From positions 800,001 through 864,000 of the forward strand of contig OZ241877.1 in NCBI GenBank assembly GCA_965203095.1: 64,000 nt of DNA, read 5' to 3'. A program made the translations under genes and the position numbers. The notes beneath the pieces are model-generated. The model saw only the letters and a list, made by a program, of their open reading frames with translations, did not search any database and was not told where the DNA came from. Below, in pieces: positions 4,896 through 45,662 of the stretch. Source of the DNA: Bdellovibrionales bacterium. GTDB taxonomy: Bacteria > Bdellovibrionota > Bdellovibrionia > Bdellovibrionales > UBA1609. Numbering within the stretch: the first letter of the stretch is position 1; every line of letters begins with the position of its first letter.

Positions 4896-6797
4896 ATGAA
4901 GTTCATTTTTAAACATTTTGGCAAAGTTATAAAGGAGATCCAATTAGAAGAGGGTCAAGAGTATTTTATTGGCCGGCAAAAAGACTGTGACTTTATTTTA
5001 GGGGAGGAGACTGGTCTTTCCCGAAAGCATATTCGCATTTATACTTCACCAGAAACGGGAAATTGGATTGTAGAATCCATCTCTGAATGGGGAGGGCTTT
5101 ATTTGGCTGGGGAGGAGGTGGAGTCTGTAGAGGTAGAGAGAGCCGGCATTTTGTCATTAAAAAATTACACTTTAGAGTTTGTTAAAGAGAAGGAAGAAAG
5201 CGAGAAAGAAAAAGTTTCTACAGGTGACCTCACTAAAATTCCGGATAGTCAGCCCAGTTTTGATCCTCATGCAGGCACAAAGGTTCTTGTTTCCTCCGAT
5301 TTGGTTCACTCTCTTTATATTTATATTTCTGGAGAGTTTTCTGATCATATAAATTTAAATGAAAGGCCAAAATGGATTGTGGGCCGATCGGAAGAGTGTG
5401 ATATATCTATTGATTATAGCATTTTGACAAGAAAGCATTTTCAAATTTCCAATCGGGAGGGTAAATTTTATATTACAGATTTAGGAAGTGCTAATAAGAC
5501 TTTTTTAAATGATCAAGAGATATCACCTCATAAAGAGATTCTTTTAAAAGCTAATGATCAAATTTCTATTTCTGATCTCAAACTGGTTTTTGAAGTGAGA
5601 AATAAAAAATATGAGGAAATGATGAATCAGCTACCAGCAGTGTCAGAAGAGGATTCGGGTGAGGGAGAGAATCTTCCGGAAATGGCTCTCCCCAAAGTGG
5701 TTTTAGAAACCGCTCCTGTAGAGGAGTCTGCCCCCTCCTCTAAAGCCAAACTCTTAAACCCCAAAAGAATAGTTCTTCTAATTTTAGTTGTTTGTGCCGG
5801 AGTTGCTTTTTATTTTAAGCAGGAAATAGATAAGAAGGAGGCTAAAAGAAAAGCTTTGGAAAAACAACAAAAGGAAAAAGAATATAGAACTAAGTTAGAG
5901 GTATTTTATAAAGAGGCTGTAGATAGATTAGAAGAGAAAAAATATCTTCTTTGTATTAACCAGTTAGAAGAGTTGCACAGAGAATCTGCTGAAGGTTATT
6001 TTAAAGATTCCCAACAGCTCCTCTCACGGTGCCAAAATGCTTTGCTGAATCAACGCAAAAAAGATGAATTTGTAGCTCAAGAAAAAGCAAAAAAAGAAAC
6101 TGAAGCTAAAATCAAAAAAATTGTTGATAAATGTAAAAAAATGTATGCAGAAAAGAAAATTCAAACCATCATGGAGTTGAATGAATGTGCAAGAGATTTG
6201 GCCAATTTGGATCCTGACAATTCAGATGTTTCTGCTATGCGAAGGGAAATAGAGGAGAGGGAAAATTTAAAACAGATGGAAGAACAAAAAAAATCAGCTT
6301 ATAAAAAAACTCTTCAATCTAAGAGATATCTTTATAACAAAGCTAAAAAACTGAAAGATCAAGGGAAAGTTTTAAAAGCAGTATCAGCTTATAATGTGTT
6401 TTTAAAATCAGTAAAAGGTTTTTCCGGATTAAAATCTTTGGCAAAACAAGCGGTGGCAGAGAGGGATGAGATTCAAAAAAACTATGATGATGAATTAAAC
6501 GATCTATATCAGTCTTGTGAAAAGCTGATACAACAAAAAAAAATGAAAGAGGCTTACTCCGATTGTAAAAAAATTCTTGCTTTTAAGAGTGATGATAAAA
6601 AAGCCTTGCAATATATTCAGCAAGCCCTGCAAACTCTTCAAAAAGAGCTGAAACCTCTTTACGAGCAGAGCATGTCAGAGGAGAGTTTTTCCAGAATTGA
6701 GCCAGCTATTGAAATTTGGAAGGAAATTTTAAAAAGAGATATCTCTGATGGTTATTACTATAAAAAAGCCCAACATCAAATAAACAAATATAAATAA
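4896..6797 (+). CDS. Double-FHA protein with TM helix and TPR/coiled-coil C-terminus
   Basis: Two FHA motifs (GRQ..SRKH; GRS..TRKH..SANKT), TM 'IVLLILVVCAGVAFYF'. Confidence 0.8.
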   Translation: MKFIFKHFGKVIKEIQLEEGQEYFIGRQKDCDFILGEETGLSRKHIRIYTSPETGNWIVESISEWGGLYLAGEEVESVEVERAGILSLKNYTLEFVKEKEESEKEKVSTGDLTKIPDSQPSFDPHAGTKVLVSSDLVHSLYIYISGEFSDHINLNERPKWIVGRSEECDISIDYSILTRKHFQISNREGKFYITDLGSANKTFLNDQEISPHKEILLKANDQISISDLKLVFEVRNKKYEEMMNQLPAVSEEDSGEGENLPEMALPKVVLETAPVEESAPSSKAKLLNPKRIVLLILVVCAGVAFYFKQEIDKKEAKRKALEKQQKEKEYRTKLEVFYKEAVDRLEEKKYLLCINQLEELHRESAEGYFKDSQQLLSRCQNALLNQRKKDEFVAQEKAKKETEAKIKKIVDKCKKMYAEKKIQTIMELNECARDLANLDPDNSDVSAMRREIEERENLKQMEEQKKSAYKKTLQSKRYLYNKAKKLKDQGKVLKAVSAYNVFLKSVKGFSGLKSLAKQAVAERDEIQKNYDDELNDLYQSCEKLIQQKKMKEAYSDCKKILAFKSDDKKALQYIQQALQTLQKELKPLYEQSMSEESFSRIEPAIEIWKEILKRDISDGYYYKKAQHQINKYK

Positions 6798-6826
6798 TCA
6801 TCCGTGAAAAATCTGGACAAAAAGCT

Positions 6827-6854
6827 TTGACTTTTACCACTTTTTGTTTATAAT
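6827..6854 (+). promoter_or_regulatory. Putative sigma70 promoter
   Basis: TTGACT-N16-TATAAT, 12 nt upstream of ATG 6867. Confidence 0.5.
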
Positions 6855-6866
6855 TGTTTTCAGTTT

Positions 6867-7550
6867 ATGAAGTTGGATCAAAGAAGTTTTGTAGGAAAAT
6901 CCTTTAGGCCCCAGCCAGAAGTTTTAATTAGTGAAAGCTTACAAATGTTTGCTTTGGTGACTCCTTGGGGGCCACGCGAGCAAAGTCAAAAGGTGTTGGA
7001 GTTTCTTTCTCAAAACTATGAAAGCTTTTGCTCTGATGAGGAAAAAACAAATATTTATTCTCATTTAGAAAGTTTATCTGAGGAGGAAAACATATTAAGG
7101 TCTCTTGTTTTAGCCTGTAATGAATGGATTTTTAATGAACAAAATAAGGGAAAAGAGTATAACTTTGGTTATGAGTTAGTTTGTGGCAATTTTAAAAATG
7201 GGAAACTTGTTTTTCTTCAAGCAGGGCATCCTTCTGTTTATTTGGATCGCCCGGATATCCCTTTACAATCCTTAGGTCCCGTTTTGGATTTTTCTGCTAT
7301 GTTTGCCCATAGTGGGCAGAGACTGCCTCCTCTTCCATCGGTATTGGTGGGGCTTTACCCTGACACGCATTTTTCGGTTTTTAGTTTCCCTGTTCTTCCA
7401 AAAGATCGATTGATTTTCATCAGTCGGGATGTGGCTTCTGGCTCCATTTTGGACTTAGGAAGAGATCATCGAGGCTTAGATCAGCTCTTATCTGCCTTAG
7501 TAAAGGAAAATGAACAAAGCCCTCTTTGGCTGGGCAGGCTCTCCTTTTAA
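6867..7550 (+). CDS. Degenerate PP2C/SpoIIE-like phosphatase-fold protein
   Basis: 'LVFLQAGHPSVYL' and 'LPKDRLIFISRD' resemble SpoIIE AGHP and DxLLLxTDG motifs; catalytic DG motifs not evident. Confidence 0.45.
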   Translation: MKLDQRSFVGKSFRPQPEVLISESLQMFALVTPWGPREQSQKVLEFLSQNYESFCSDEEKTNIYSHLESLSEEENILRSLVLACNEWIFNEQNKGKEYNFGYELVCGNFKNGKLVFLQAGHPSVYLDRPDIPLQSLGPVLDFSAMFAHSGQRLPPLPSVLVGLYPDTHFSVFSFPVLPKDRLIFISRDVASGSILDLGRDHRGLDQLLSALVKENEQSPLWLGRLSF

Positions 7551-7632
7551 TCCTACAACATATATTTTTAAGTTCGGCCTTAAAGTGTCGTGGCCAGGCT
7601 AAAACTCTTTTTTGAGAAGACTACTTGAGAGA

Positions 7633-7821
7633 CTATTGCTTTGCTAAAAGCTTATCCAGCTTTTCATTAAGCTTAGCTTGTCCAACCTCAAGTTTAGCTT
7701 GTCCAACCTCAAGCTTATCTATGGATTTTCTGATTGGCCATAGTGAAAGTTGAATAATCCCAAACAGGACTGTCATAAGAGCACAAACTGCTATAACTGT
7801 GCCAGAATCTAAACTTTCCAT
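7633..7821 (-). CDS. Small membrane-anchored coiled-coil protein (62 aa)
   Basis: RBS AGGAG, upstream promoter, N-terminal TM helix, heptad repeat KLEVGQA x2. Confidence 0.7.
   Translation of the reverse strand: MESLDSGTVIAVCALMTVLFGIIQLSLWPIRKSIDKLEVGQAKLEVGQAKLNEKLDKLLAKQ
7669..7716. repeat. 21-bp tandem repeat (2.3 units) encoding heptad KLEVGQA
   Basis: aagcttagcttgtccaacctc / aagtttagcttgtccaacctc / aagctt. Confidence 0.9.
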
Positions 7822-7857
7822 GATTAACTCCTAAAGGTATAGTTTATGCCTTTATCC

Positions 7858-7887
7858 ACTATATGGACAATTGGCCGGGAATGTCAA
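7858..7887 (-). promoter_or_regulatory. Putative sigma70 promoter of the 62-aa gene
   Basis: Minus strand TTGACA-N18-TATAGT. Confidence 0.6.
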
Positions 7888-8020
7888 GCCATTTGTAAAT
7901 TTTTTCACAAAAACGCTCAAAAGCCCTTACCGGGGGCCAGCTAAAAGCTTTTATGGGAACCAAAAAAGGCTCAAAAAGCTCAAGTAGGCTTTTGGGCAAA
8001 TCTGGTTTTTTCATAAGCAA

Positions 8021-8368
8021 CTACTTAAAACTTTTATCTTTTAAAGTAGAGGAAGAGGACAAACTCTCCAATTTGTCAGAAGATCTTAAACCAGTATATA
8101 GTTCCATTTGTCGAATGCGGGTTTTCAGCTCATTCAATTCCTTTTCCATATAAAACATTCTGGAATTGACTTTGCCATTCCCATAGACATCCTCTGATAT
8201 CTTTTCAACCGACATTCTCAAAGTGTCCATAAAATTGGCGATATGTTCATTTTGCTTCTTCAAACTCAGCATGTGTTTTTGCCTTGAAGAATCGCGTTTT
8301 TGAAAAAACCTCCATATCAAATAGAGAAAAGGAACTTGTATGGTTAAGAGAAAAATAATGTATTCCAT
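8021..8368 (-). CDS. Hypothetical protein, N-terminal TM helix plus coiled coil
   Basis: Hydrophobic N-terminus, AGGGGG RBS-like sequence upstream. Confidence 0.55.
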   Translation of the reverse strand: MEYIIFLLTIQVPFLYLIWRFFQKRDSSRQKHMLSLKKQNEHIANFMDTLRMSVEKISEDVYGNGKVNSRMFYMEKELNELKTRIRQMELYTGLRSSDKLESLSSSSTLKDKSFK

Positions 8369-16264: not shown

Positions 16265-16734
16265 AATCTAAAAAAACCAATACAAGCTATCGGAGGAGCT
16301 TATCTCCGGCTTGGCCTAAAGAGGTTTTTATTTGGACAGACGGAGCTTGTAGAGGAAATCCCGGACCTTGCTCCTTAGGTCTTCAAGTTTTAAACCGTGA
16401 TGGGCAGATCTTGCATGAGGAAGCCCTCTATTTAGAAAACAACAACACCAACAATTTTGCTGAGTATAGGGCAGTTATTCGAGCTCTTGAACTGGCGGTT
16501 CAACAAGCTGTTCAAAAACTGTCCCTATTTTCTGACAGCCAACTGATCATCCGCCAATTAGAGAAAAAATATAAAGTCAAATCCTCTAACCTAAAACCTC
16601 TTTTTAAACAATGTCAGAAGTTTTTAAAAAAAATTCCCGAAGTTCATCTCAAATATATTAGTAGAGAACAAAATAAACCAGCCGATGCTTTAGCCAATCA
16701 GGCTTTAGATGAAAAATTCAAAAAAAGGAAATAA
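16240..16734 (+). CDS. rnhA: Ribonuclease HI family protein
   Basis: TDGACRGNPG, TNNFAEY, SDSQL, REQNKPADALAN. Confidence 0.85.
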   Translation: MRGRSIKLKSKKTNTSYRRSLSPAWPKEVFIWTDGACRGNPGPCSLGLQVLNRDGQILHEEALYLENNNTNNFAEYRAVIRALELAVQQAVQKLSLFSDSQLIIRQLEKKYKVKSSNLKPLFKQCQKFLKKIPEVHLKYISREQNKPADALANQALDEKFKKRK

Positions 16735-16736
16735 AA

Positions 16737-17705
16737 ATGAGTTTTCTTATTCGTCCAGCAGATTTTCAAGATAAAGAAGATCTTTTGGAGTTATCTCATT
16801 TTTTCCCACTTTGCAGTTTGCCTAAAAACTCTCTTAAGCTTAAAAAAAAGCTGGAGGTGAGCCAAGAGTCTTTCAAAGGGATCCGGCCTAAAGAGGAAAG
16901 AAATTATATTTTCGTCTTAGAAGATCAAAAGGCAAAAAAAGTCATCGGCTCCAGTCAAATTTTATCTTATTTTGGCCCTCATCAGTCCTTATGTTATTTT
17001 CTTAAAACATACAAAAAAAATATTTTTTTAGAATTGAAAAAGATCTCTACAGGGCAAAATCAAATAGGGGGCTTGATTGTGCATCCTGCATATCGCAAAA
17101 AGCCCTCCCTGTTAGGCTTGCAAATTGGTCTAACTCGTTTTTTATATATAAAAAGTTTTCCAAAAGATTTTTCTTCTCTTATAGAAGTGAGCCTCACTGC
17201 TCCTTTTACTGGATCAAAAAATGAATTTTGGAAAGAAACGGGGCAAAAGCAGTTAAAAATAAGCTATTCTTCTGCTTTAAAAAAGCTCCAAACGGATCGC
17301 CTTTCTTTTTATTCTCTTTTTCCAAAAAAATTAAAAATTCCTTTATCCCAGCTGAGTGAAAAAGCTCAAAATTGCCTTCAGGAAGTTCATCCGCAAACCT
17401 ATCCTGCCTTAACTGGTCTTTTAAAAAGAGGGTTTCAAGCAAGTTCTCGTCGTCACATACTGGACGGAGGGATTTATTTAGAAGCTTTTTGGAGGGATCT
17501 GCCCTTTCTTAAAAAAGCCAAAAGTCTTTTTTTAAAAAAAGACAAAAAAATAAAAGGTTCTGCCTTTCTTTTATCACAAAACAGCCCACAGGGTTTTAAC
17601 TGTCAAAAAGTTTTAGGCCAGCTGAGTGGAAACCGGTTTTTAATTCAAGCTATTCCCAGGGTTTTTTCCGATAAAAAAAAGGTTTTGGCATTAAAATTCC
17701 CTTGA
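16737..17705 (+). CDS. astA: Arginine N-succinyltransferase
   Basis: FLIRPA.., YIFVLED, IGGLIVHPAYR, EVHPQT.PA..LL..GF, DGG pattern of AstA. Confidence 0.75.
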   Translation: MSFLIRPADFQDKEDLLELSHFFPLCSLPKNSLKLKKKLEVSQESFKGIRPKEERNYIFVLEDQKAKKVIGSSQILSYFGPHQSLCYFLKTYKKNIFLELKKISTGQNQIGGLIVHPAYRKKPSLLGLQIGLTRFLYIKSFPKDFSSLIEVSLTAPFTGSKNEFWKETGQKQLKISYSSALKKLQTDRLSFYSLFPKKLKIPLSQLSEKAQNCLQEVHPQTYPALTGLLKRGFQASSRRHILDGGIYLEAFWRDLPFLKKAKSLFLKKDKKIKGSAFLLSQNSPQGFNCQKVLGQLSGNRFLIQAIPRVFSDKKKVLALKFP

Positions 17706-17903
17706 AAACGGGAATCCAGGAGTCTCAATCTTTTCCACAAAAATTTATTGAAAAACCTTATTCCCTAGCTTTTTCTCCAAAGGCCGTTCCATTTCGGGAC
17801 GGCAATACCTTGGACCCTCATGAAACGGCCTTTGGACAAAAACAGTTGAAAAGGTTAAAAAATGATTCTGTCAGCGAAATACTGAACATTTACAGGAATG
17901 ACT
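17696..17903 (+). mobile_element. ~208-bp composite MITE/REP-doublet-like element, copy 1, with central 71-bp hairpin (17771-17841)
   Basis: Starts ATTCCC-N8-GGGAATCC, ends GATTC...GGAATGAC; 7 differences over 186 nt from the inverted copy at 32721-32927. Confidence 0.75.
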
Positions 17904-17907
17904 CAGC

Positions 17908-18291
17908 CTAAACAGCTTTCTCTTTTTTCCACCTTGTTTTAAACATGTTTTGTAAAACATAAAAAAGTAAAAAAGTTAAAATGGAACTCAAACCTATCAA
18001 AAAGGCTTTGCCATCAAGAAACCATAAAACAGCGATCAAAACAACAAGCAAACTCAACCATTTAAGAGAGAGGATAAGGAAAGCTAAGGCTCGTCTTTTT
18101 TTCTTAAAAAGCAAGGAGGCCGAGTAAAAAAACAAAAGCATATAAAAATTAGCAAAAACAAATCCAGTAAAAAAAGCTATCCGGCTCAAACCAAAAAAAT
18201 AAACCAAAATGAACAAGAGCAAACCATAAAGAACTTGAAAGGCAAAACCTTTTAAGCCTAACGGAAATGTCTGTAAAAATTTAAAAACCAT
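17908..18291 (-). CDS. ATP synthase protein I (AtpI)-like 4-TM membrane protein
   Basis: Four hydrophobic segments, 'GFVFANF', 'LILSLKW', 'FLIGL'; directly downstream of an AtpZ-like gene; start uncertain. Confidence 0.55.
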   Translation of the reverse strand: MVFKFLQTFPLGLKGFAFQVLYGLLLFILVYFFGLSRIAFFTGFVFANFYMLLFFYSASLLFKKKRRALAFLILSLKWLSLLVVLIAVLWFLDGKAFLIGLSSILTFLLFYVLQNMFKTRWKKEKAV

Positions 18292-18428
18292 AAGATATAA
18301 GCCAGAATGAGACAAAAAATTGTGGCCCAGCCCCCCATTAAAAATTTGTTATCTAAAAATCGACCTAAAAAAAATCCAATTGCAATAAAAGATAAAAGCT
18401 CCGAGCTGACAATAAAAAGCTTTTTCAC
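18258..18428 (-). CDS. AtpZ/AtpI-family small membrane protein (56 aa, below ORF-track cutoff)
   Basis: GTG 18428: MKKLFIVSSELLSFIAIGFFLGRFLDNKFLMGGWATIFCLILAYILWFLNFYRHFR; GxxxGxxLD motif typical of the family. Confidence 0.65.
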   Translation of the reverse strand: MKKLFIVSSELLSFIAIGFFLGRFLDNKFLMGGWATIFCLILAYILWFLNFYRHFR

Positions 18429-18432
18429 AATC

Positions 18433-19194
18433 TCAAAACCCCGGCTGATGGCTCCGTCTTTCCATAAGGCGGTTAATCTTTCCCCTAATAAAAGGGTTGG
18501 AGGGGTGGATCTTCTCTAACTCCTTTATAGCAGACGAAAAATCTTTTTGGGACTCATAAATAAAAGCCAAATACTCTCTTAAAAAAGCTGATTCTTCGGG
18601 AAATTGCTCTATTTGCCTCTCAAAAAGCTCTTTTGCTAAATCAAATCGCCCTTCTGCCATCAGGCTCCGGCCCTTTAAGTTGAGTGCCTGTTTTCTTTTT
18701 TCCTGGGAGATTCCATCAAAAAAACATTTGTCTGCCTCTCTTAAAGCCTGTGAATATTTTTTTAAATAAAAAAAACTCTCCGCTATATGATATTGAACAA
18801 AAAACCTTTCCTCTGTCCCTAAAACTTGCCGGGACAAGTCAGTATAATGTTTTAAAGCCTTTTCATAATCTTTAATTTTATAAAAAGAAAGATCGGCCAA
18901 CTGCCTCTGCCATTTTTTAGAGGAAGGCGAAGGGTTCCGCTCAATTTTTAAAAGCTTTTCTAAAATAAAAATCGCCTTTTTTGTTTTTTCCTTTTTTATG
19001 CAAGCCTCTGCCCCACGAGTCAGACGAGAGGTCAGACGAGCTTTTTTCCTATAATGGAGTTGAGGCTGATGGGCCAATTTATAAGCCCTTTCACAACCGG
19101 ACCATGCCTTTAAAAAAGCTATGCCCTGGCCCCAACCCCAAGCTTCTATGGGCAAAGCAGATAAAGACATAAAAAATAAAGAGAGGATTCTCAT
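18433..19194 (-). CDS. Exported TPR-repeat protein
   Basis: Signal-peptide-like N-terminus; TPR helices (IAESFFYLKKYSQA, KGRSLMAEGRFDLA). Confidence 0.75.
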   Translation of the reverse strand: MRILSLFFMSLSALPIEAWGWGQGIAFLKAWSGCERAYKLAHQPQLHYRKKARLTSRLTRGAEACIKKEKTKKAIFILEKLLKIERNPSPSSKKWQRQLADLSFYKIKDYEKALKHYTDLSRQVLGTEERFFVQYHIAESFFYLKKYSQALREADKCFFDGISQEKRKQALNLKGRSLMAEGRFDLAKELFERQIEQFPEESAFLREYLAFIYESQKDFSSAIKELEKIHPSNPFIRGKINRLMERRSHQPGF

Positions 19195-19221
19195 CTCATA
19201 GATGTTTGGCTTTTAACTCTT

Positions 19222-24164
<4,943 letters not shown>

Positions 24165-24226
24165 TTATTATCTCATTTTTTTATCTAAAAAGAAAGCCCT
24201 TTATAGATTATTTCACGGGCAAGTAT

Positions 24227-25726
24227 TTATGGGGGAAAGGGGCTTCTCAGCTCTTTTAAAAAGCAAAAACAGGCCAAAGCAATAAGCAGTAAAAGAGGGA
24301 AAGCTGAGACAATAAGTAAGAGTTCAAGAGCTTTTATCCCACCGAGATAGAGCAGAGCTATGGCCAGCAATCCCTCTAAAGAGGCCCAATAGAGCTTGCC
24401 CCACAGGGGGAATCTCCCTTTTCGGGAGGAAATTTGATGAATAACATAAGAGGCCGAATCGGAAGATGTGACGAAAAAAACAACAATAGCCAAAAGAGCC
24501 GTTATACATAAGGTTTTTGAAAAGGGGAAATGCTTTAAAAACTCAAACAACAAAAGGGAATACTCTGTTTTTAAAAGAGGCTGAAGGTTCATTTCCCCGG
24601 TGAGATGATATTCAATAGCCGAACCGCCAAAAACAGCAAACCAAAAACAAGAAAGTCCGGCAGGGGCCAATAGGCTGGCCAACACAATTTGCCGGACACT
24701 TCGCCCTTTAGAAATACGAGCAATAAACAGCCCTGTAAAAGGGGTCCAAGCCACCCACCAGGCCAAATAGAGCAATGTCCATTGGGATCGCCACTCGACA
24801 GAACCTAAAGAGTTAACTCGAGTCATATTTTTGATCAGATCCAGTAAATAATGCATAGAATGCTCCACAAAGGAGCTGAGCACAAAAACTGTAGGGCCAG
24901 CGGAAAAGACAAATAAAAGTAAAAACAAGCAGATCAAAAGGTTCAATTCACTCAAACGGCGAATCCCCTTGTTCAGCCCAGAAATTAAAGATAAGGCTGA
25001 GCCTACAGTGATAGCAAAAATGATCAGGGTTTGAGTTGTTGAAGAATAAGAGATCCCCCATAACTCCTTAAGGCCGGAATTGATTTGCATACTTCCACGC
25101 CCTAAGGTGACCGCCATACCAATCAAAATCACCACTACCGATACAATATCAATAAGAGATTTTAAAAAACCAGCTGATCTTCCTTTTAAAAAAGGAGAAA
25201 ATATAGAGGATATTTTTAAAGATTTTCCTCTGCAAAAAGAGAAATAGGCCATAATGATCCCTGTCAGGGTATAAATAGCCCAGCCAGAAAATCCCCAATG
25301 AAGAAAAGTGAGTTGAAAGGCCTGAGGCAGTGGCTCTACCCCCGTGGTAGGCCCTGAAGGAGGGTAAAAATAATGATACAGTGGCTCATAAACGCCGGAG
25401 AACAAAAGCCCGGTGCCCATGCCTGCACTAAAAATCATGGCTATCCATGTTCCATTATTGTATTTTGGGGGGCCGGCCCCCATTTTCAGCCGGCCATAAG
25501 GGCTAAGGGCCAGGTAAATACAAAGGCAGAAAAATAAAAAAAATAAAAAAACATAAAACCAAGAAGTATAGAGGATAAAAACATTTTGCCCTCTCGACAA
25601 AACATTGAAAAAACCATTAGGAAATAAAAAAGCCAGTGCTAAAATAAAAAAAATGAGACCACCAGCCCCTATAAAAACAGGATTGCCATTTTTTTTAAAG
25701 AGGATGGGTAGGAGTTGATTTTTCAT
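24227..25726 (-). CDS. BCCT family (betaine/carnitine/choline) transporter
   Basis: MIFSAGMGTGL, FLHWG, WTLLYLAWWVAWTPFTGLFIARISKGR, TSSDS; start likely ATG 25726. Confidence 0.92.
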   Translation of the reverse strand: MKNQLLPILFKKNGNPVFIGAGGLIFFILALAFLFPNGFFNVLSRGQNVFILYTSWFYVFLFFLFFCLCIYLALSPYGRLKMGAGPPKYNNGTWIAMIFSAGMGTGLLFSGVYEPLYHYFYPPSGPTTGVEPLPQAFQLTFLHWGFSGWAIYTLTGIIMAYFSFCRGKSLKISSIFSPFLKGRSAGFLKSLIDIVSVVVILIGMAVTLGRGSMQINSGLKELWGISYSSTTQTLIIFAITVGSALSLISGLNKGIRRLSELNLLICLFLLLFVFSAGPTVFVLSSFVEHSMHYLLDLIKNMTRVNSLGSVEWRSQWTLLYLAWWVAWTPFTGLFIARISKGRSVRQIVLASLLAPAGLSCFWFAVFGGSAIEYHLTGEMNLQPLLKTEYSLLLFEFLKHFPFSKTLCITALLAIVVFFVTSSDSASYVIHQISSRKGRFPLWGKLYWASLEGLLAIALLYLGGIKALELLLIVSAFPLLLLIALACFCFLKELRSPFPP

Positions 25727-25757
25727 AAAAGTTTCCCCTGAGATAAAAAGACTATTC

Positions 25758-26348
25758 CTACACCCCCATAGAACACAATACTTCCTTAACCTGCCTTTTG
25801 AGGCTTTGCAAGTGGCCACTGTTGTCAATAATGAAGTCCGCATGGCCCTGAGCTTGGGATTCGGGAATTTGTGCCCTCCATCTCTGTTTAATTTCTATAG
25901 AGGTCCAGCCTTTTTTTATCAACCTTTGTCTTTTGATACTTTTAGGACAGACAAGCAAAATTTTTTTGTCAAAAGAATCAAACATTTTTAAAGATATGAG
26001 AGGGGCTTCATAAAAAACCCAGCTTTCCCCAGAGTTTTTTTGATGATCCCGCCATTTTTTAAAAGACTCCCTGATCAAAGGGTAAATAATGGCGGAAAGG
26101 GCCTTTCGCTTATCTGCATTTTGGAAAATATCCTTTGCCAGCTGTTTTCTATCCCACTCGCCATTAGATTTAAAAAATCGATCCTCATTAAAAATCTGCT
26201 TTAAACGGGAATAACAGGGGCTTTTAATGCTCATAAGCTCTCTCGCCTTTGTGTCCGCTTTAAAAACAGGGTAGGATTGAGCCTCTAAACAAGCAATTAC
26301 AGTGCTTTTCCCCGATCCCATAGAACCCGTCACTAAAACCGTTGTCAT
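25758..26348 (-). CDS. coaE: Dephospho-CoA kinase
   Basis: TGSMGSGKST, ADxxA, DRKQL, EAPL, ADFIIDNSG. Confidence 0.9.
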   Translation of the reverse strand: MTTVLVTGSMGSGKSTVIACLEAQSYPVFKADTKARELMSIKSPCYSRLKQIFNEDRFFKSNGEWDRKQLAKDIFQNADKRKALSAIIYPLIRESFKKWRDHQKNSGESWVFYEAPLISLKMFDSFDKKILLVCPKSIKRQRLIKKGWTSIEIKQRWRAQIPESQAQGHADFIIDNSGHLQSLKRQVKEVLCSMGV

Positions 26349-26457
26349 ATTGTTGATGAGAATACTGGTAGTTAAAGGATTTTTTTAGTCCCAAACCAAT
26401 GAAAAAGCCTTTAAAGGCTATTTTTTTCAAAAAAAAGGCTCACTCACAGGCAAACTT

Positions 26458-26485
26458 TAAAGTCTATAGCCAAAAAAGCCGATAA
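26458..26485 (+). promoter_or_regulatory. Putative sigma28 (FliA)-type promoter of the kinase-pilin operon
   Basis: TAAAG-N15-GCCGATAA; -10 box matches the sigma28 consensus exactly. Confidence 0.6.
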
Positions 26486-26494
26486 TTTTATTAG

Positions 26495-28441
26495 ATGAAA
26501 TTTACAGAATTTGGAAAATACACCATCATTAAGAAACTGGCCTCTGGGGGCATGGCTGACATTTTGTTGGCCTGTGATTTAAGCCCCGCGGGTTTTGGCC
26601 GATTTGTGGTCATTAAACGAGCTTTGTCAAAGTTTTCTGAAAATGAAGAATTTAAGGACATGTTCAAAAATGAGGGGAAGGTGGCCAATAGCCTCAAACA
26701 CAGCAACATTACCCCCATTTATGAATTTGGGATCCAAAAAGACCAATTTTTTCTCTGTATGGAATATATTTCCGGAAGAAATGTCCGAGAGCTTATTAAA
26801 AAATTACAACTTTACAAAAGCTCTATCAGTATTCCCAACGCGGTTTACATTATTAAAGAGGTGGCCTCTGGTTTGAATTACGCCCACAATGCAGTGGATC
26901 CCAACACGGGACGACCTTTAAACCTTATCCATAGGGACATCAGCCCCCAAAATATCATGTTGAGCTTTGACGGAGAGGTAAAACTTATTGACTTTGGAAT
27001 TGCCAAAATAGCCGACACCAATTTGACTCGAGTAGGCCATCTGAAGGGAAAGTTCAGCTACATGAGTCCAGAGCAGGCCAAGGGCGAACCATTGGACGCT
27101 CGGACAGATATTTTCTGCATGGGGATCATTTTGTGGGAGCTCTTGACTGGCAAAAGGCTTTTTGCTTCGTCAAATGACCTCAACTCTTTAAAAAAAGTTA
27201 AAGTTTGCGATGTTCCTTCAGCACAAAAAATCAATCCGGAGATCCCTACCGCACTCAATCATGTGATTCAAAAGGCTTTAAGCAAAAATAAAAATTCAAG
27301 ATACAAATCGGCCGCAAATATGGAGCAAGATCTGACAGTATTTTTAAATAAAAACTATCCAGAATATTCTCGCTATGAGTTTATTTCCCTAATAAAAAAA
27401 GTTTATCGAAAAGAAATAATGAAAGAGCGGGAAGACTTGAAAACCTATTCCTCTAAATTTAACATATATAAAAATGAACGAAACAAAGAAGAGGGCTTAA
27501 GCCCACAAACACAACACTTGAGTATTCCCGATATATCTATATTAGACCCGGCCCCTAAAGCACCAACAGAAACAAAAAGTTGGTTAAATGAAGAAGAGAA
27601 CAGGTCTTACAACAGCCAGTTTATCACACAAACCAAAAAGACGAAATCATTTACAAACAGTCAAGAAAAAGAGGAGAATAGTTCCACCTTAATCCAAAGG
27701 CAAGACTTCAAAACAGAGACTTCAGCAAATGACCAGACATTGAGTCGCTCATTGACTGATGAGACTCGTCAGCCCCAACTTGTTGCAAAAAATAATGACT
27801 CGATCCAGTTGAAAATGGAAAGCCAATACAAAATGGCTAAAACTCAAAGTCCTCCTTTTAATCAGGGGACTTTAAACACTGATCTGTCTTTTAAAAAAGC
27901 CACAGCTCTTTACGATAAGAAAAAATTTATAGAACAAATTGCAGAAAACAAGGATGAAAACCAAACCTCTTTGTTTTTTTTGATTATGGCGAGTGTTTTA
28001 TTTTTAGGGGGTGGTTCTTTTGCTATTTTTTGGTTGATAAAAAATGACAATGTGATGGAATGGTTAGGGGCAGGAGGCGGAACATCCCCTCCCTCTGTTC
28101 AGCAAGGTTTGCCTAAATCCATTCCGGCCCCGCATTCTGCTGAAAAGGCTTTTGCTAATAAGCAGATAACTAACCCACCGGCTCAGAGAAAAATATTTAT
28201 CAACTCCAAACCCTCAGGTGCGGCCATTTTTGTAAATGGTCAATTTTTGTCTAAATATACCCCTTCTGTAGTCAGTTTGAGTGCCAAAAGCATATCACAT
28301 ATCACTATTAAAAAAGAGGGCTACTTCCCTAAAAAAACTGTATTTAATCCACAAAATCAAAGCCAAAGCTCTTTAAGTGTCAGTTTAAGAGCTGATCCTC
28401 AAAGGGATCTCTCTTCGGAAAAAACCTATATTAGACAATAA
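26495..28441 (+). CDS. Transmembrane Hanks-type Ser/Thr protein kinase with C-terminal PEGA domain
   Basis: GGMA, HRDISPQN, DFG, GKFSYMSPEQ; Thr/Ser-rich linker; TM; PEGA-like 'INSKPSGAAIFVNG...TP...KKEGY'. Confidence 0.92.
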   Translation: MKFTEFGKYTIIKKLASGGMADILLACDLSPAGFGRFVVIKRALSKFSENEEFKDMFKNEGKVANSLKHSNITPIYEFGIQKDQFFLCMEYISGRNVRELIKKLQLYKSSISIPNAVYIIKEVASGLNYAHNAVDPNTGRPLNLIHRDISPQNIMLSFDGEVKLIDFGIAKIADTNLTRVGHLKGKFSYMSPEQAKGEPLDARTDIFCMGIILWELLTGKRLFASSNDLNSLKKVKVCDVPSAQKINPEIPTALNHVIQKALSKNKNSRYKSAANMEQDLTVFLNKNYPEYSRYEFISLIKKVYRKEIMKEREDLKTYSSKFNIYKNERNKEEGLSPQTQHLSIPDISILDPAPKAPTETKSWLNEEENRSYNSQFITQTKKTKSFTNSQEKEENSSTLIQRQDFKTETSANDQTLSRSLTDETRQPQLVAKNNDSIQLKMESQYKMAKTQSPPFNQGTLNTDLSFKKATALYDKKKFIEQIAENKDENQTSLFFLIMASVLFLGGGSFAIFWLIKNDNVMEWLGAGGGTSPPSVQQGLPKSIPAPHSAEKAFANKQITNPPAQRKIFINSKPSGAAIFVNGQFLSKYTPSVVSLSAKSISHITIKKEGYFPKKTVFNPQNQSQSSLSVSLRADPQRDLSSEKTYIRQ

Positions 28442-28767
28442 TGAGGGACATAATGTTTTTTTTGAGAAAAAAGCCCAGCACCTCCTCTCAAAATAAAGGC
28501 TTAAAAAGAGCTTTTTTAAAAAGTCGTTCCGGACAGGTCACAGTGGAGTATATCCTTTTAGGAGCTGTTTTGGCCTTCCTATTTAAATTGGTGACAACTT
28601 CTAACCCGTTAAAAGACTCATTACAAAATTTTCAAGAGACACCTTATAAAGTATTTAATAATTTGTTGGAGACCGGAAACTTAATCTCTGATGGACCAAC
28701 TGGACCAACCGCCACAGAACAGCATCCCAATAATCATAAATTGCATTACACTTCTGATGGAGAATAA
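28441..28767 (+). CDS. Small Tad/Flp-type pilin-like protein
   Basis: Class III signal: basic leader, G|QVTVEYILL, hydrophobic helix. Confidence 0.7.
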   Translation: MRDIMFFLRKKPSTSSQNKGLKRAFLKSRSGQVTVEYILLGAVLAFLFKLVTTSNPLKDSLQNFQETPYKVFNNLLETGNLISDGPTGPTATEQHPNNHKLHYTSDGE

Positions 28768-28776
28768 ATATCGCTT

Positions 28777-30096
28777 ATGAAAAAGTCTACATTTAATAGA
28801 TCGCATAAGCAAAAGTCCAGCTTGTTCGGGACGGCAATACCTTGGACCCTCACCGCTGGCTTTTGCTCATGCGATAAAGGACAGATCTTTTTTACGAAAG
28901 GATTAAGAGTCGCCTATGAAAAGCCTTGTTCTTTAATTTCTTTATCCAAAGGCCCTGCCCTTTCGGGCTCCCGCCAAGTCTTTACCCAAAATCCCGTCAT
29001 TCCCGCCTTGAGCGGGAATCCATTCCTCTCAGACCCTCACCATTCGTTATTCCCGCTTAGCTTTTCGGATTGCCCCCGGCAATTCTCAATCCCACGAAAG
29101 CGGGAATCCATATTTAGTTTATCTTTTTGTCCAAAGTCCGTTCCATTTCGGGACGGGAATACCTTGGACCCTCATGGAACGGACTTTGGACAAAAGCACT
29201 TAAGCAAGCTCTTCCCAGGATTAGTCTTTCCAAAAAAGCCAGTTGCTCCCGTGAAGAACCTTTTCGGCTTGCCCCCGGCAAGTCTCAATCCCGTGAAAAA
29301 CTTCGTCATTCCCGTGAAAACGGGAATCCAGAAATCTCTATCTTTCCTGCAAAATTTATTAAAAAGTCTCAGGTCTTTTCGGATTCCTGCTCAAGGAAGG
29401 AATGACTATTCTTGTCGTGGGAAAATACCTTCCCGGGAAAAAGGTTTTGTGACGATTCCTTTTCTTTTGGTTTCAATTATTATTTTATTTTTGATTCTCT
29501 CTTTTTTTAGGCTCACTTTCACTTTGGTTCATGCCAGTGTGGCTCAGTATATCGCCTATTCCACCTCCCGAAAACTGGCTTTGGGAGGGAAAAATAAGAA
29601 TGGGTTTATTAAGGCAGATGGCCATTATGTCAAACTCCATAAAAAGTTTTTTAATAATGCTTTTAAAGCTAATAGTAGTGATTGTAGTGAGGGAGGGCTT
29701 GATATGTTTACAATCTGCTCTACTAAAGACGGTCTTATTGGAAAAGGAGACTCGATAGGAAAAAAGAGTGAACGTGAGCGTGATTATAAAAGTAATCATC
29801 CTAATAAAACTTTATTTTATGGGGTAGGAGTTCTTTTTGATTATAATAAGGCACTGAGATTTAAAATCCCTTTCTTATCGAAAAACTCAAACATCTCGCC
29901 ACCGGAATATGCCATTATCAATTCTTTTTTAGGACGAGAGATTTCTCAAGATGAGTGTGATGATTATAGTAATAGTTTTTTCAAACAAAGGAATACATTT
30001 ATCTATAGTATGATAAAGGAAAATAGAAATTCACAAATTCTTGATGGCTTTGAAGCTAATAAGATAAAAATAAATGGAGGTGACAATGGCTGTTAA
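28777..30096 (+). CDS. TadE-like pilin-related protein with ~200 aa of repeat-derived sequence in its N-terminal leader
   Basis: KG|FVTIPFLLVSIIILF... prepilin-like segment near aa 221; upstream codons correspond to the palindromic repeats; ATG 9 nt after the previous stop. Confidence 0.65.
   Translation: MKKSTFNRSHKQKSSLFGTAIPWTLTAGFCSCDKGQIFFTKGLRVAYEKPCSLISLSKGPALSGSRQVFTQNPVIPALSGNPFLSDPHHSLFPLSFSDCPRQFSIPRKRESIFSLSFCPKSVPFRDGNTLDPHGTDFGQKHLSKLFPGLVFPKKPVAPVKNLFGLPPASLNPVKNFVIPVKTGIQKSLSFLQNLLKSLRSFRIPAQGRNDYSCRGKIPSREKGFVTIPFLLVSIIILFLILSFFRLTFTLVHASVAQYIAYSTSRKLALGGKNKNGFIKADGHYVKLHKKFFNNAFKANSSDCSEGGLDMFTICSTKDGLIGKGDSIGKKSERERDYKSNHPNKTLFYGVGVLFDYNKALRFKIPFLSKNSNISPPEYAIINSFLGREISQDECDDYSNSFFKQRNTFIYSMIKENRNSQILDGFEANKIKINGGDNGC
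28800..29406. repeat. Array of palindromic repeat modules (2 core hairpins, several REP-like units, 2 TTGCC-CCC-GGCAA hairpins)
   Basis: Hairpins 28800-28875 and 29125-29195; REPs 28996-29021, 29088-29109, doublet 29305-29406; modules 29062-29093 and 29261-29292. Confidence 0.9.
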
Positions 30097-30559
30097 TAAA
30101 AAGAAACGAAAAGCTAAGCAAAAACATTTTTTGCGATCTTCCCGTGGGGTGGCGGTGGTGGAAATGTTGCCACTGTTATTTATTTTTGTCATGTTTTTTG
30201 GCATTACTTTTGGCTTTTGGTCAGCTATTCACAAAGCCACTTTGCACAGCATAGCCGCTCGTCATTACGGCTTTGAAGTGATCCATAATCGCTCCGATTT
30301 GTATTATCATAGAGATACGGATACGGGAAAACCAAATAAAAATTATTATGGAAAACCTAATAAAGGTCTCCGTTATTTTGCTATTGTTGAACATCAAACC
30401 GTCGATCCAGAATTAAAACCAAGAATTAATAAATTAAATTTATTTGACAAAGGAGAACTGACAATAAATTCAATACAAGATCCAACTCTAGAAGTTAATC
30501 CCATTAAGCTTAAAATAGGTTATGGTATCTGTATAGATTATGAATGTGGCGGGTTATGA
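30086..30559 (+). CDS. TadE-like pilin-related protein
   Basis: Basic leader, G|VAVVEMLPLLFIF.., AAR motif, C-terminal Cys pair; RBS GGAGG before ATG 30086. Confidence 0.75.
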   Translation: MAVNKKKRKAKQKHFLRSSRGVAVVEMLPLLFIFVMFFGITFGFWSAIHKATLHSIAARHYGFEVIHNRSDLYYHRDTDTGKPNKNYYGKPNKGLRYFAIVEHQTVDPELKPRINKLNLFDKGELTINSIQDPTLEVNPIKLKIGYGICIDYECGGL

Positions 30560-30665
30560 CGGTGTTGTCTTCTCTTCCATAAACTCAGCAAGAATCCCCC
30601 TCATTTTTTTGGGCTTGCCCAAAAGCCTTCTTCTTTGGTATAGAGTAAACACTTCATGAGGATAG

Positions 30666-31124
30666 ATGATGACACGAGGCATAATTTATAAAACCTATAA
30701 AAAAGTGGAACAACTGCATAAAAAACACTTAAAAAGACATGGAGTAAATCTCCCAAAATTGAAAAATAACAAAGGATCATACACCAGAGATGCGTTGGTA
30801 TTAATATACCTAAGTCAAGGCTATCCTCATACTAAAAAAGCAACAAAAAAGGAATTAACCCAATTTATAAGAAAATATTATCCTGACACAAGTGATGTTC
30901 AACAAGGAAGGCATTTAGGAGCACAAAAAGGATGGTGGATTTTAGCAGGAGGAAGAGACAATATTGTCTTATCCTTAAAACGAGGAGAATATCAGCTTTA
31001 CACATTAGAAAAACCCTACCCTGGGTTTAAGCAAAGCAGGAGACAAATAAAATCCCTTAAAAGGCAAGCCCCCTGGCCAACTGAGATAGAAAATGAAAAA
31101 ATACATAAACAAAATTATTCATGA
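30666..31124 (+). pseudogene. Probable truncated type II restriction endonuclease (N-terminal part only)
   Basis: Overlaps the start of a DNA MTase; 'DVQQGRHLGAQKGW' resembles REase-annotated proteins (from memory); no CxxC/HNH or PD-(D/E)xK region before the stop. Confidence 0.5.
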
Positions 31125-32076
31125 TGATGCTCTTAATTTTTTGCCAAAATTAAAAAGCAATTCCATAGATATTATACTGACAGATCCTCCCTATTTCTTA
31201 GATAAAATGGATCATACTTGGAGTGCTAAAAAGGTAATCAGCCCTAAAAAACCTTATGCTATAAAACACCTGCCAGCAGGTATGAAGTTTGACAGAGAGC
31301 AAGGAAAAACCTTTTATTCATGGTATTTAAAAGTATCAGAAAATCTTTTTAGGGTTTTAAAACCAGGAGGATTTTTCTTTTCTTTTTCCAGCCCCAGATT
31401 GTATCACAGGATGACTTGTGCTATTGATGATGCAGGATTTGAAATAAGAGACTGTTTTATATGGCTTTATACACAAAATCAGCCCAAAGCAATGAGCCTT
31501 CATCATTTTATTAACAAAACAAATAAACCTGAAGAAGAAAAACAGAAACTCAATAGCAAATTTAAGGAATGGAAAACTCCACAGGTAAAATCCTGTTATG
31601 AACCGATTGCAATGGCTCAAAAACCTATAGAGGGAACTTATTTAGAAAACTCAATAAAATACAATGTTTCTTTAATCAATACAAAAATAAAGCAAGGGCA
31701 GAATAAAGATATGTTTGCATCAAATATCATGACAAGTGAATACATTAACCACAAAATAGATAAGGTTTTTTTAGTAGATAAACCAAAAGAAAATGAAAAA
31801 GGCTCTTTTAATAATCATAAAACAGTAAAACCCTTATCATTATTTAGATACTTAATTAGTCTAACTACAAAACCTAAAAGTATAGTATTGGATCCATTTA
31901 TAGGTAGTGGCACAACAGCTATAGCTTGTAGGGAGCTTAACAGGAAATTTATAGGAGTGGAAATCAATAAACAATATATTGATATTTCCACTACAAGATT
32001 AAGTAAGCTAAAGAGATCAAAAACACAACAAAAAAAGGAATTTATTCCCGGACAAAAAGAGCTTTTTACAATTTAA
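31093..32076 (+). CDS. N4-cytosine/N6-adenine DNA methyltransferase, beta class
   Basis: DPPY precedes H.TVKP and LDPFIGSGTT (motif order IV...I). Confidence 0.92.
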   Translation: MKKYINKIIHDDALNFLPKLKSNSIDIILTDPPYFLDKMDHTWSAKKVISPKKPYAIKHLPAGMKFDREQGKTFYSWYLKVSENLFRVLKPGGFFFSFSSPRLYHRMTCAIDDAGFEIRDCFIWLYTQNQPKAMSLHHFINKTNKPEEEKQKLNSKFKEWKTPQVKSCYEPIAMAQKPIEGTYLENSIKYNVSLINTKIKQGQNKDMFASNIMTSEYINHKIDKVFLVDKPKENEKGSFNNHKTVKPLSLFRYLISLTTKPKSIVLDPFIGSGTTAIACRELNRKFIGVEINKQYIDISTTRLSKLKRSKTQQKKEFIPGQKELFTI

Positions 32077-32112
32077 GCATTTTTAAACTATCCTTTTTTA
32101 GTTCAGGAAATA

Positions 32113-32706
32113 TTACTTGATCATAAAAGCCATATATCTTGAAAAAGAATGTGTTTTATAATCAAAGTTCAGTTCTCCGGAAAAAAGCAGTTGGCTGTGG
32201 GGGAATTTATCCTTCAGCTCTTCTTTTGAATGAACAGGGGCAATATGCTCTTTGTGCAGGAGATCACATGCTTGAAGAGCAATAGTTTTTCCAGTAGGAA
32301 TATTGTCATACCACAGCCGGGAGGAAAAGTGCTCAACAGAAGTGTTGATGATAATATCAGGCTTTTCGGAATCGGCAAAAGCCAAATCTTTATAATCCAA
32401 CTGATTGCAGTCTATGGTTTTGGCTTTAAACTTCCAAGCCCGGCAAAGCCAGTTTTCATTAAGGCTATCCGCTATTTTTTCGGAGAGAGGATCTTTGTCA
32501 AATAGCCGGATGGTTTTAATTTTTAAATTCTCCCGGCTCAGCAATAAAAAAGGAAGGAGCCCTACCCATCCACCCAAAATCCATATTGTTTGAGATTCTT
32601 TTTTGCTAATAAAAAGCTTTTCCAACTCCCGGCAAAGCCAAAGCTTGGATTCCACCTGGCCTGATGAAAAAACATCTCGGCTAAGCTTTATATTGTTTTC
32701 TTTAAT
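32113..32706 (-). CDS. Class I SAM-dependent methyltransferase-like protein (start uncertain)
   Basis: DVFSSGQVESKLWL, ILGGWVG, FDKD, IINTSVEH; frame is open upstream of the GTG at 32655. Confidence 0.6.
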   Translation of the reverse strand: MKENNIKLSRDVFSSGQVESKLWLCRELEKLFISKKESQTIWILGGWVGLLPFLLLSRENLKIKTIRLFDKDPLSEKIADSLNENWLCRAWKFKAKTIDCNQLDYKDLAFADSEKPDIIINTSVEHFSSRLWYDNIPTGKTIALQACDLLHKEHIAPVHSKEELKDKFPHSQLLFSGELNFDYKTHSFSRYMAFMIK

Positions 32707-32720
32707 CTTCCTCTCCTCCA

Positions 32721-32927
32721 GCCATTCCTGTAAATGTTCAGTATTTCGCTGACAGAATCATTTTTTAACCTTTTCAACTGTTTTTGTCCAAAGGCTGTTT
32801 CATGAGGGTCCAAGGTATTTCCGTCCCGAAATGGAACAGCCTTTGGACAAAAAGCTAAGGAATAAGGTTTTTTAATAAATTTTTGTGGAAAAGATTGAGA
32901 TTCCTGGATGACTGTTTGCACGGGATT
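32721..32927 (-). mobile_element. ~207-bp composite element, copy 2 (inverted), central hairpin 32782-32852
   Basis: Reverse complement nearly identical to 17696-17903. Confidence 0.75.
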
Positions 32928-32943
32928 GATTGGCTGTTAGTTT

Positions 32944-33684: not shown

Positions 33685-33690
33685 TATCCT

Positions 33691-45271: not shown

Positions 45272-45459
45272 CCTTTTCTCTATTTTTTAAAAAAGAAATG
45301 TTCCACCTGATTTGTGACTTACTTTACAGGCCAGCCTTTGTCCATACATTTTTTTAAATTCATAGCACTTTATTTGAGACGGCTTTTTTAGTTGGTTTTT
45401 GCCCTCATTTCAATCCCTTTTCCGCATGTGCACTGGATATTAAACTGGAAAATCAGCCT

Positions 45460-45662
45460 TTCCTGTAAATGTTCAGTATTTCACTGACAGAATTTATTTA
45501 AGTTTCTTTGCCTAAAGGTCCGTCCCATTTCGGGACGGCAATACCTTGGACCCTTATGGGACGGCCTTTAGGCAAAAACACATAGACTTTCTCAGCTTGC
45601 CCTTGCTAAGTTTGCCAAAAAGTTCCCCAAACTTTTTGGCTCCCGTGAAAACGGGAATCCAG
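45460..45662. repeat. Rearranged composite of the same repeat modules
   Basis: Reverse end module 45460-45493, core hairpin 45507-45576, hairpin 45614-45640, REP TCCCGTGAAAACGGGAATCCAG 45641-45662. Confidence 0.85.

Follow-up and report, generated by a model that had tools for sequence, protein, structure and literature searches.

What is the short sequence that recurs on long hairpins in this part of a Bdellovibrionales genome, how does it spread, and what keeps it conserved? The stretch of DNA analyzed here (hereafter, the window) is 64,000 nucleotides long and belongs to a genome (G000) of 1.80 Mb that is 90% complete. The repeat is about 70 bases in length. The original prediction, made from the letters of the window, described a conserved core at five sites, each on a paired stem, and read it as a structured element that is either mobile or a dispersed RNA motif. 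All five sites are exact matches to a 25-base core pattern (17793, 28825, 29147 and 45529 on the plus strand, 32806 on the minus strand), the stems that had been quoted are present at the window copies, and 100 dinucleotide shuffles of the window gave no match. Across G000 there are 81 copies with at most two mismatches in the core, and the family exceeds 100 copies once degenerate cores are included.

The motif had not been recognized as a described family, and our searches agree. Rfam 15 returned nothing in the window at the gathering threshold, seven loci gave sub-threshold generic hairpins only, and the longest hairpin variant had no Rfam 15 matches. Full-text searches of the open literature found no description; an account of the IS or of the motif may exist in ISfinder or in subscription journals. 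The structured motif is apparently undescribed.

Copies in the Window

Copy 1 is folded on the minus strand (17770..17842). Its outer stem, P1, is formed by approximately 17770-17792 and 17820-17842 and encloses the conserved core (17793..17820). The copy scores 80 bits against our covariance model, to whose training set it belongs. The surrounding unit of approximately 205 bp (17696..17902, minus strand) has dRS3/NTS-type boundaries: a dRS3/NTS hairpin at 17699-17716 and a GTCATTCC-type end at 17892-17902. The IS5 inverted repeats discussed below are absent from this copy. The unit is nearly identical to the dRS3-bounded unit that carries copy 4 (32721..32925, plus strand), in which the hairpin lies at approximately 32781-32853, the core at 32803-32830, and the folded strand is the plus strand. 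Copy 5 sits in a unit on the minus strand with approximate outer limits of 45456..45661 (hairpin approximately 45507-45579, core 45529-45556, dRS3-type hairpin 45642-45659).

Copies 2 and 3 are neighbors. Copy 2 (28800-28875, core 28825-28852) is contained in a decayed 133-bp IS5-type MITE on the minus strand (28770..28903), the left inverted repeat of which (28770-28784) has three mismatches and the right is degenerate. Intact ends are present in the MITE subfamily of the same length (133 bp) elsewhere in G000. A mosaic repeat cluster follows (28909..29330), made up of a solo IS5-type end (28909-28923), dRS3-type hairpins (from 28996, at 29091-29108 and at 29305-29328) and copy 3 (approximately 29125-29196, minus strand, core 29147-29174). 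Contigs from a public sequencing run are identical to the window at 16500-17805 and 32766-34000, an identity that speaks only against an assembly slip, as the run may be the source sample. Among the rows listed for four runs compared with window positions 16500-34000 there is no clean empty-site joint, and the contigs break at repeats.

Two open frames near these copies are of separate note. A 439-aa frame (28777-30096, plus strand) spans several dRS3 repeats as well as two copies of the hairpin. Repeat DNA accounts for about the first 210 of its residues, and the frame has no Pfam or NCBIfam match; the real gene, which lies among pilus-like genes, probably starts further downstream. At 30666-32076 (plus strand) a DNA methyltransferase (PF01555) comes after a 152-aa ORF without known family, possibly as a restriction-modification pair.

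Fold and Preferred Strand

On its folded strand the core reads GA-GNG-UCCAA...GU-CNC-GA. In the model, P1 (18-25 bp) leads to a U-A pair with an adjacent bulge, then to two G·A pairs and to P2, a helix of 3 bp (GNG/CNC). Above P2 lie an asymmetric UCCAA/GU internal loop and then a P3 helix (2 bp in the window copy) with a tip of variable length. In copy 1 the tandem G·A pairs are 17818-19 with 17794-95, P2 is 17815-17 with 17796-98, the 5-nt joiner UCCAA is 17810-14, the joiner GU is 17799-800, and P3 is 17808-09 with 17801-02, closing a loop at 17803-07. The core had originally been placed as a loop at the stem apex. It is instead a structured extension of the stem that runs from the tandem G·A pairs through P2 and the internal loop to P3 and its loop.

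The strand on which the core had been written is also not the one we would choose: the opposite strand folds better and is favored by wobble pairs. The minimum free energy of copy 1 is -40.9 kcal/mol on the minus strand versus -30.4 on the plus strand. Relative to shuffles, the z-scores of two hairpins (17765-17845 and 28795-28880) are -5 on the strand first written and -7 on the opposite strand. The reverse-complement strand is lower in energy in 41/50, 36/38 and 5/5 distinct copies from three genomes. Purine mismatches are favored by energy alone, and mismatches in P1 were therefore counted as a separate test of strand. On the GAG strand, 166 arm pairs from seven genomes hold 56 G·T versus 21 A·C mismatches; by distinct context the counts are 39 and 18 (p=0.0075). 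Under symmetric mutation the two kinds of mismatch would be equally frequent, so one strand is preferred. The bias marks that strand and is compatible with either RNA or DNA. Methods for structured-RNA discovery do not separate RNA from ssDNA (PMC5737381), and folded MITE transcripts are common (PMC10969869).

IS5-Type MITEs and Their Parental Element

Alignment of the flanks brought out inverted repeats, GTCGYYCGTGAAAAA, around many hairpin copies. In G000, 46 of the 81 copies lie between paired IS5-type inverted repeats (132-260 bp), 17 have one such repeat and 18 have none nearby. The MITEs have 15-bp terminal inverted repeats, lack coding capacity and are flanked by 6-bp duplications of the TANNTA type. 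An exact 6-bp target duplication is found in 19 of the 46 paired copies (shuffled mean 4.2, maximum 11). These 46 copies are IS5-derived MITEs. A non-autonomous mobile element had been foreseen as one of two possibilities, and the inverted repeats and duplications bear this out. The mobilizer had been expected to be an HUH/RAYT-like enzyme; the one that can be demonstrated is an IS5-family DDE transposase that uses the outer inverted repeats, which the earlier work had missed.

The same inverted repeats bound IS5 elements with an NF033578 transposase; an intact IS of this kind was found by scanning species genomes for the end. The cognate transposase of the relatives has DUF772 and DDE_Tnp_1 domains, and homologs on plasmids, at 43%, are annotated ISRm12-like. 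Related IS5 elements with 6-bp duplications are found in G017 and G244, and full-length elements are likewise flanked. The link between IS and hairpin is seen in G205. Full-length elements of 1,580-1,608 bp there include the hairpin, and the stop codon of the transposase falls in its 5' arm. The folded strand is the sense (mRNA) strand of the transposase, and the right repeat ends about 40 nt past the hairpin. Nine of the 11 model matches in G205 were inspected: three are full-length elements (one with a broken frame), three are deleted, two are short 3' pieces and one is a MITE. G229 has an internally deleted remnant of the IS5, ~80% identical, with the hairpin at the same position and an altered core. 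IS5 relatives at 41-57% identity, represented by six distinct 3' ends, lack the hairpin.

In G000, which is 90% complete, this transposase has no match. Four DDE_Tnp_1 genes of G000 were considered as the source of the MITEs and rejected; they are IS1634 genes with different ends. Nor is there a transposase match in G180, G195 or G201, and the copies inspected there lack intact IS5 ends. G000 also holds six IS630-like transposase genes and many pentapeptide-repeat paralogs.

Some IS5 copies have a small second palindrome in the left end (L182, L204, L156) that is missing in L197. Related palindromes are nested in the hairpin tip in G205 and G229, and further small hairpin families therefore move in these genomes. 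IS5-type ends also enclose genes. The sole ARAGORN tRNA-Asn gene of G000 (226160-226235) lies between such inverted repeats (C1:226059-226254) with a near-duplication, TATTTA/TATATA; the two repeats are either solo ends or the termini of a MITE that encloses the tRNA gene. At 6797-8021 of the window, two IS5-type ends that face inward, with no matching duplication, flank a 227-aa ORF (6867-7550) of no known family. A comparable pair of ends spanning 694 bp (G000:248801-249494) encloses a 110-aa YraN-like ORF. Gene capture is possible at such loci.

dRS3/NTS-Type Units and Other Settings of the Hairpin

The IS5 is not the only carrier. Ends resembling those of the unit around copies 1 and 4 are found in G195 as well, and further copies occur bare, outside both IS5 ends and dRS3 units. 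At G195:C5:105179-106483 (L304-L322), six units of hairpin plus dRS3 are arranged in tandem at a spacing of 235-261 bp, as in a BIME-like array. The dRS3/NTS repeat is a known site of Ssn single-strand nucleases (PMC11893778), and CGTC-1 REPs correspond to dRS3/NTS-type repeats (PMC3733652). In our reading, the hairpin module either predates its capture by IS5 or is independent of it. Some conserved operons (atp, ribosomal proteins) contain hairpin copies (L184 in G195, L206 and L193 in G201) that are bracketed by direct repeats of 26-45 bp, at least one of which comes from yet another repeat family.

The core is not fixed within its carrier. A MITE at G000:114894-115157 has the same flanks as window copies 1 and 4 and an inverted core. 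Judged from the base following the inverted repeat, the core is opposite to the orientation of the IS in eight of the 30 assignable MITEs of G000 and in 15 of the 23 sampled in G229. Each P2 allele is found on several stem and junction types, and chimeric copies, core-deleted copies and arms built from core pieces all occur. There is no orientation bias with respect to co-directional genes (16 vs. 13) or to replichores (46 vs. 35, p=0.27, with origin and terminus derived from skew and of uncertain accuracy). The gene context of the copies is similar to that of other intergenic gaps. A more radical explanation of these exchanges is that the core itself cuts, flips and swaps between stems with as little as 3-4 bases of flanking homology, parasitizing IS5 ends and dRS3/NTS units, and is a new functional nucleic-acid motif, either a small ribozyme or the folded-ssDNA site of an undescribed strand-transfer enzyme. 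We regard this as unlikely. Recruitment of such modules could be a strategy general to IS5 elements.

Covariation and Selection

The covariance model was built from 18 copies. In a 50-row alignment fitted to the model, whose rows are related, both sides have changed in 20 of 22 pairs, and the observed score was unmatched by any shuffle or slid control. Independent covariation events are few: P2 has at least three double changes and P3 has one, and copying has amplified each of them. In G229, P2 was counted by hand with a search pattern that tolerated mismatches at P2 positions. Among the 92 copies listed, P2 is GGG/CCC in 43, GAG/CTC in 22, GTG/CAC in 19, AGG/CCT in five and otherwise in three. 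The middle pair, of which there are three types, is Watson-Crick in 91 of these 92, where ~37 would be expected under independence. The three exceptional copies all have chimeric arms, drawn from two different subfamilies.

P3 is GC/GC instead of GG/CC in G180 and G205, and is lengthened to ~14 bp in G195 and G201, while some tips in G244 reach 100-175 bases. G229 has a TTAAATC joiner variant, so the core is not invariant. G000 has amplified subfamilies in which a P2 pair is broken (TGG/CCC in eight and GGG/CGC in seven, together 15/61). Between P2 and P1, the tandem G·A pairs and the bulge never give way to a perfectly palindromic sequence. The core is retained across hosts whose UvrC proteins differ at more than half of their residues, and the stems and tip have been replaced.

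How much of this reflects selection? The original prediction, a structured motif under selection, stands in part: the structure is there and the covariation is real, but the covariation of the outer stem, which had been its main evidence, is explicable by template switching. In a single step, template switching is known to make the two arms uniform, invert the spacer and create compensatory changes (PMC8604942, PMC8794818). It can therefore produce the covariation of P1 without selection. It accounts less well for covariation in P2 beside G·A pairs and a bulge that stay uncorrected, and less well for the occurrence of each P2 allele on several stem and junction types. Selection is better supported by the covariation of the core in relatives together with the bias of G·T over A·C.

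Distribution and Origin in G000

A search of 109 genomes of the family with the model gave matches in eight, of which seven were kept after a check of the core. These are G000 and six genomes of a sister genus (G229, G244, G205, G195, G201 and G180); a weak match in G007 (E=0.004) was dropped for want of a core. The exact core pattern is found in three of 301 genomes of the order. A looser pattern is found only in G000 among 401 genomes sampled across the phylum, a sample without any genome of the sister genus. Viral contigs yielded no true matches to the core patterns (five chance matches lack stems). The 17 core-pattern matches in metagenome contigs, none of which has the upstream half of the core, were taken as chance. 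BLASTN against plasmids and phages returned no match except one of 25 bases at E=0.8. All seven positive genomes carry at least 28 dRS3-type repeats; several of the 19 negative genomes tested are also rich in dRS3.

In a UvrC tree of 22 taxa, G000 groups within its own genus, among five genomes that lack the motif, and the sister genus stands apart. UvrC of G000 and G229 is 46% identical, and their 133-bp MITEs are up to 83% identical in DNA with cores one base apart. The runs that contain G000 also contain contigs with the G229-type loop, which is one base shorter (mostly from one study). On these sequence comparisons, the simplest reading is that G000 gained the element horizontally from the sister genus on an IS5, and it would since have lost the transposase.

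Search for a Protein Partner

In G000 there is no match to Y1/RAYT, RVT_1 or DUF559, and in G229 there is no Y1_Tnp (RAYT). The original prediction had suggested looking for a RAYT, IS200 or GIY-YIG gene flanked by copies; RAYT is absent from both genomes, and a stand-alone GIY-YIG (Ssn) gene of ~95 aa flanked by the repeat was not found in G000. The Y1 genes of G244 and G205 were considered as RAYT and set aside, since they belong to multi-copy IS200-like elements with their own ends. The GIY-YIG genes of G000 are UvrC and two GIY-YIG-RAMA proteins. The latter were rejected as partners; proteins of the same size class occur in motif-negative genomes. Short GIY-YIG frames are found only in G195, which is motif-positive, and G224, which is motif-negative, with no model match adjoining. 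No gene family recurs beside the copies. Rpn-like genes adjoin some hairpin copies in relatives, and G000 has what we take to be two six-copy families of Rpn-like proteins.

Direct hairpin copies flank genes in two relatives. In G244, an St85-family retron (effector plus RT) lies between two direct hairpin-bearing units with cores of 98 and 158 bases (L175, C1:118841-122401). In G201, direct copies flank other genes, presumably NYN-like (L317/L320). These direct repeats may mark the gain and loss of cassettes. The RT genes at L176 (G005) and L177 (G205) are accompanied by a short accessory ORF and an HRDC-like ORF, and these loci resemble diversity-generating retroelements.

Could the motif then be part of a reverse-transcriptase or rolling-circle system, as a retron ncRNA or an IS91-type end? 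The long-tip copies on either side of the G244 retron cassette suggest it, as does the CAAG within the near-invariant joiner, the target tetranucleotide of IS91. Against this, RVT_1 is without a match in G000, no model match of note lies at the RT loci of three other genomes, five further long-tip matches in G244 lie away from the retron, and direct copies flank unrelated genes too. A retron has a single ncRNA upstream of its RT, and the copies in G244 flank the retron, not precede it. A search for HUH-Y2 transposases gave 0/5 genomes, and its positive control was likewise without match. We judged the link in G244 to be incidental. The retron reading is largely refuted, and a system of either kind is very improbable.

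Relation to Known Repeat Families

The nearest known elements are IS5-family MITEs (NF033578, transpos_IS5_1), with which many copies share the 15-bp inverted repeats, the 6-bp AT-rich duplication, a length of 133-260 bp and the lack of coding capacity. The hairpin differs from these in adding an asymmetric covarying core that is found outside the MITE too, inverts and is exchanged between stems, and 35 of the 81 copies have no paired ends.

In other respects the hairpin resembles REP/BIME/REPIN elements with RAYT, and CGTC REPs/dRS3/NTS with Ssn. These too are dispersed, intergenic, stranded hairpins in mosaic clusters and tandem arrays (PMC3733652, PMC11893778). Like REP and dRS3, the hairpin has no gene-orientation bias, and it is physically joined to dRS3-type units. 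Compared with REPs and CGTC REPs, its stem is about three times longer and its conserved sequence is in an internal loop, not in the stem or tail. Alignments show that the hairpin has no GTAG-tagged palindrome of 20-40 bp. The CGTC tag with an 8-9-bp stem and a 4-5-nt loop is also absent from the hairpin itself, and such repeats are its neighbors. The hairpin is thus neither a REP/RAYT nor an NTS/Ssn repeat by the features that define them; it works most like a REP-type passenger, and is a MITE where the ends are present.

Two further comparisons are instructive. The ssr9/MITEPpu9 module of ISPpu9 is also non-coding, lies downstream of the transposase, is found in some IS copies and alone, and is dispensable for related ISs (PMC12288879). 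However, ISPpu9 is of the IS110 family, which has another chemistry, and Ssr9 is a demonstrated sRNA with its own ends, whereas our hairpin is known from sequence and has no ends of its own. The attC sites resemble the hairpin in their little-conserved stem sequence, strand-asymmetric hairpin and conserved unpaired bases (PMC5737381). In contrast to attC, no link to a cassette array or integrase was seen at the hairpin. The tandem G·A pairs are reminiscent of stem II of the hammerhead ribozyme, but the hairpin lacks the CUGA turn. Likenesses to k-turn, hammerhead, twister, pistol, CRISPR repeats and tRNA fragments were dropped because defining bases or geometry are missing.

Interpretation

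The reading that we favor, with moderate confidence, is a REP-like single-strand module on IS5 MITEs, with stems kept by template switching and a core kept by a putative reader. The hairpin would be a small non-coding module, active when folded as a single strand and lacking any mobility gene. It would spread by hitch-hiking: one IS5 lineage has it in the right end, deletion derivatives of that element (133-260 bp) account for over half of the G000 copies, and other copies are in dRS3/NTS-type units, sometimes in tandem, or bare. Template switching in replication would re-perfect or replace the long stem and invert the core between the arms. The core would be kept through recognition of its shape by a protein, and cores would pass from one stem to another through nicking and repair templated by other copies. 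As with RAYT on REPs and Ssn on NTS repeats, the substrate of that recognition would more likely be ssDNA, toward which we lean slightly; the lack of orientation bias, the inversions of the core and the presence of each P2 allele on more than one stem type speak for the DNA level. Recognition as RNA is possible and considerably less probable, and the absence of any reader would be improbable.

Alternatively, the hairpin could be the native right-end RNA of an IS5 sub-lineage, either a 3' structure of the transposase mRNA or an sRNA controlling transposase expression or mRNA decay. The dispersed copies would then be MITE derivatives, some later without ends. We consider this possible, though rather less than probable. 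In every inspected G205 element and in the G229 remnant, the stop codon falls within the hairpin on the sense strand, and the wobble bias independently picks the same strand; however, the placement in G205 comes from one event in all copies, and the hairpin flips freely relative to IS ends and neighboring genes. The graded deletion series from IS to MITE in G205 also fits. So do the tandem G·A pairs and the variable-length tip, which are typical of RNA motifs, and ssr9 of ISPpu9 sets a precedent for an IS-borne sRNA that also moves as a MITE (PMC12288879). Yet the hairpin is missing from IS5 relatives at 41-57% identity and is present in G180, G195 and G201 without intact inverted repeats or this transposase. 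Terminator-like and sense-strand promoter-like sites are both absent at the IS end, and the left-end palindrome, present or absent in the same IS, indicates that it collects passengers. A quite unlikely alternative is that the core has no function at all: a small number of master copies would have multiplied as MITEs and dRS3 units, with template switching behind the perfect, changing stems and the inversions, and gene conversion among the many copies behind the uniform center. The one-step effects of template switching cited above (PMC8604942, PMC8794818) would supply the mechanism. Arms with copied core pieces, chimeric and core-deleted copies, the amplified subfamilies with broken P2 in G000, and a patchy distribution in repeat-rich genomes only (seven of seven positives at or above 28 dRS3-type repeats) all agree with it. 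On the other side, P2 covaries while the adjacent tandem G·A pairs and bulge are never made palindromic, the core is conserved across distant hosts whose stems and tips have been replaced, and the G·T over A·C bias is unexpected from symmetric mutation.

The favored reading, a passenger module with a core under recognition, can be tested directly with the G205 element and the natural compensatory alleles. The route of spread is traceable from an intact IS5 to MITEs, and probably across genera. If the core is inert, the hairpin would be one more MITE/REP family in a small uncultured clade. The family offers a compact system for two questions: what keeps the core conserved in bacterial hairpin repeats that lack a known enzyme, and how much of the stem covariation of repeats is due to selection and how much to template switching.
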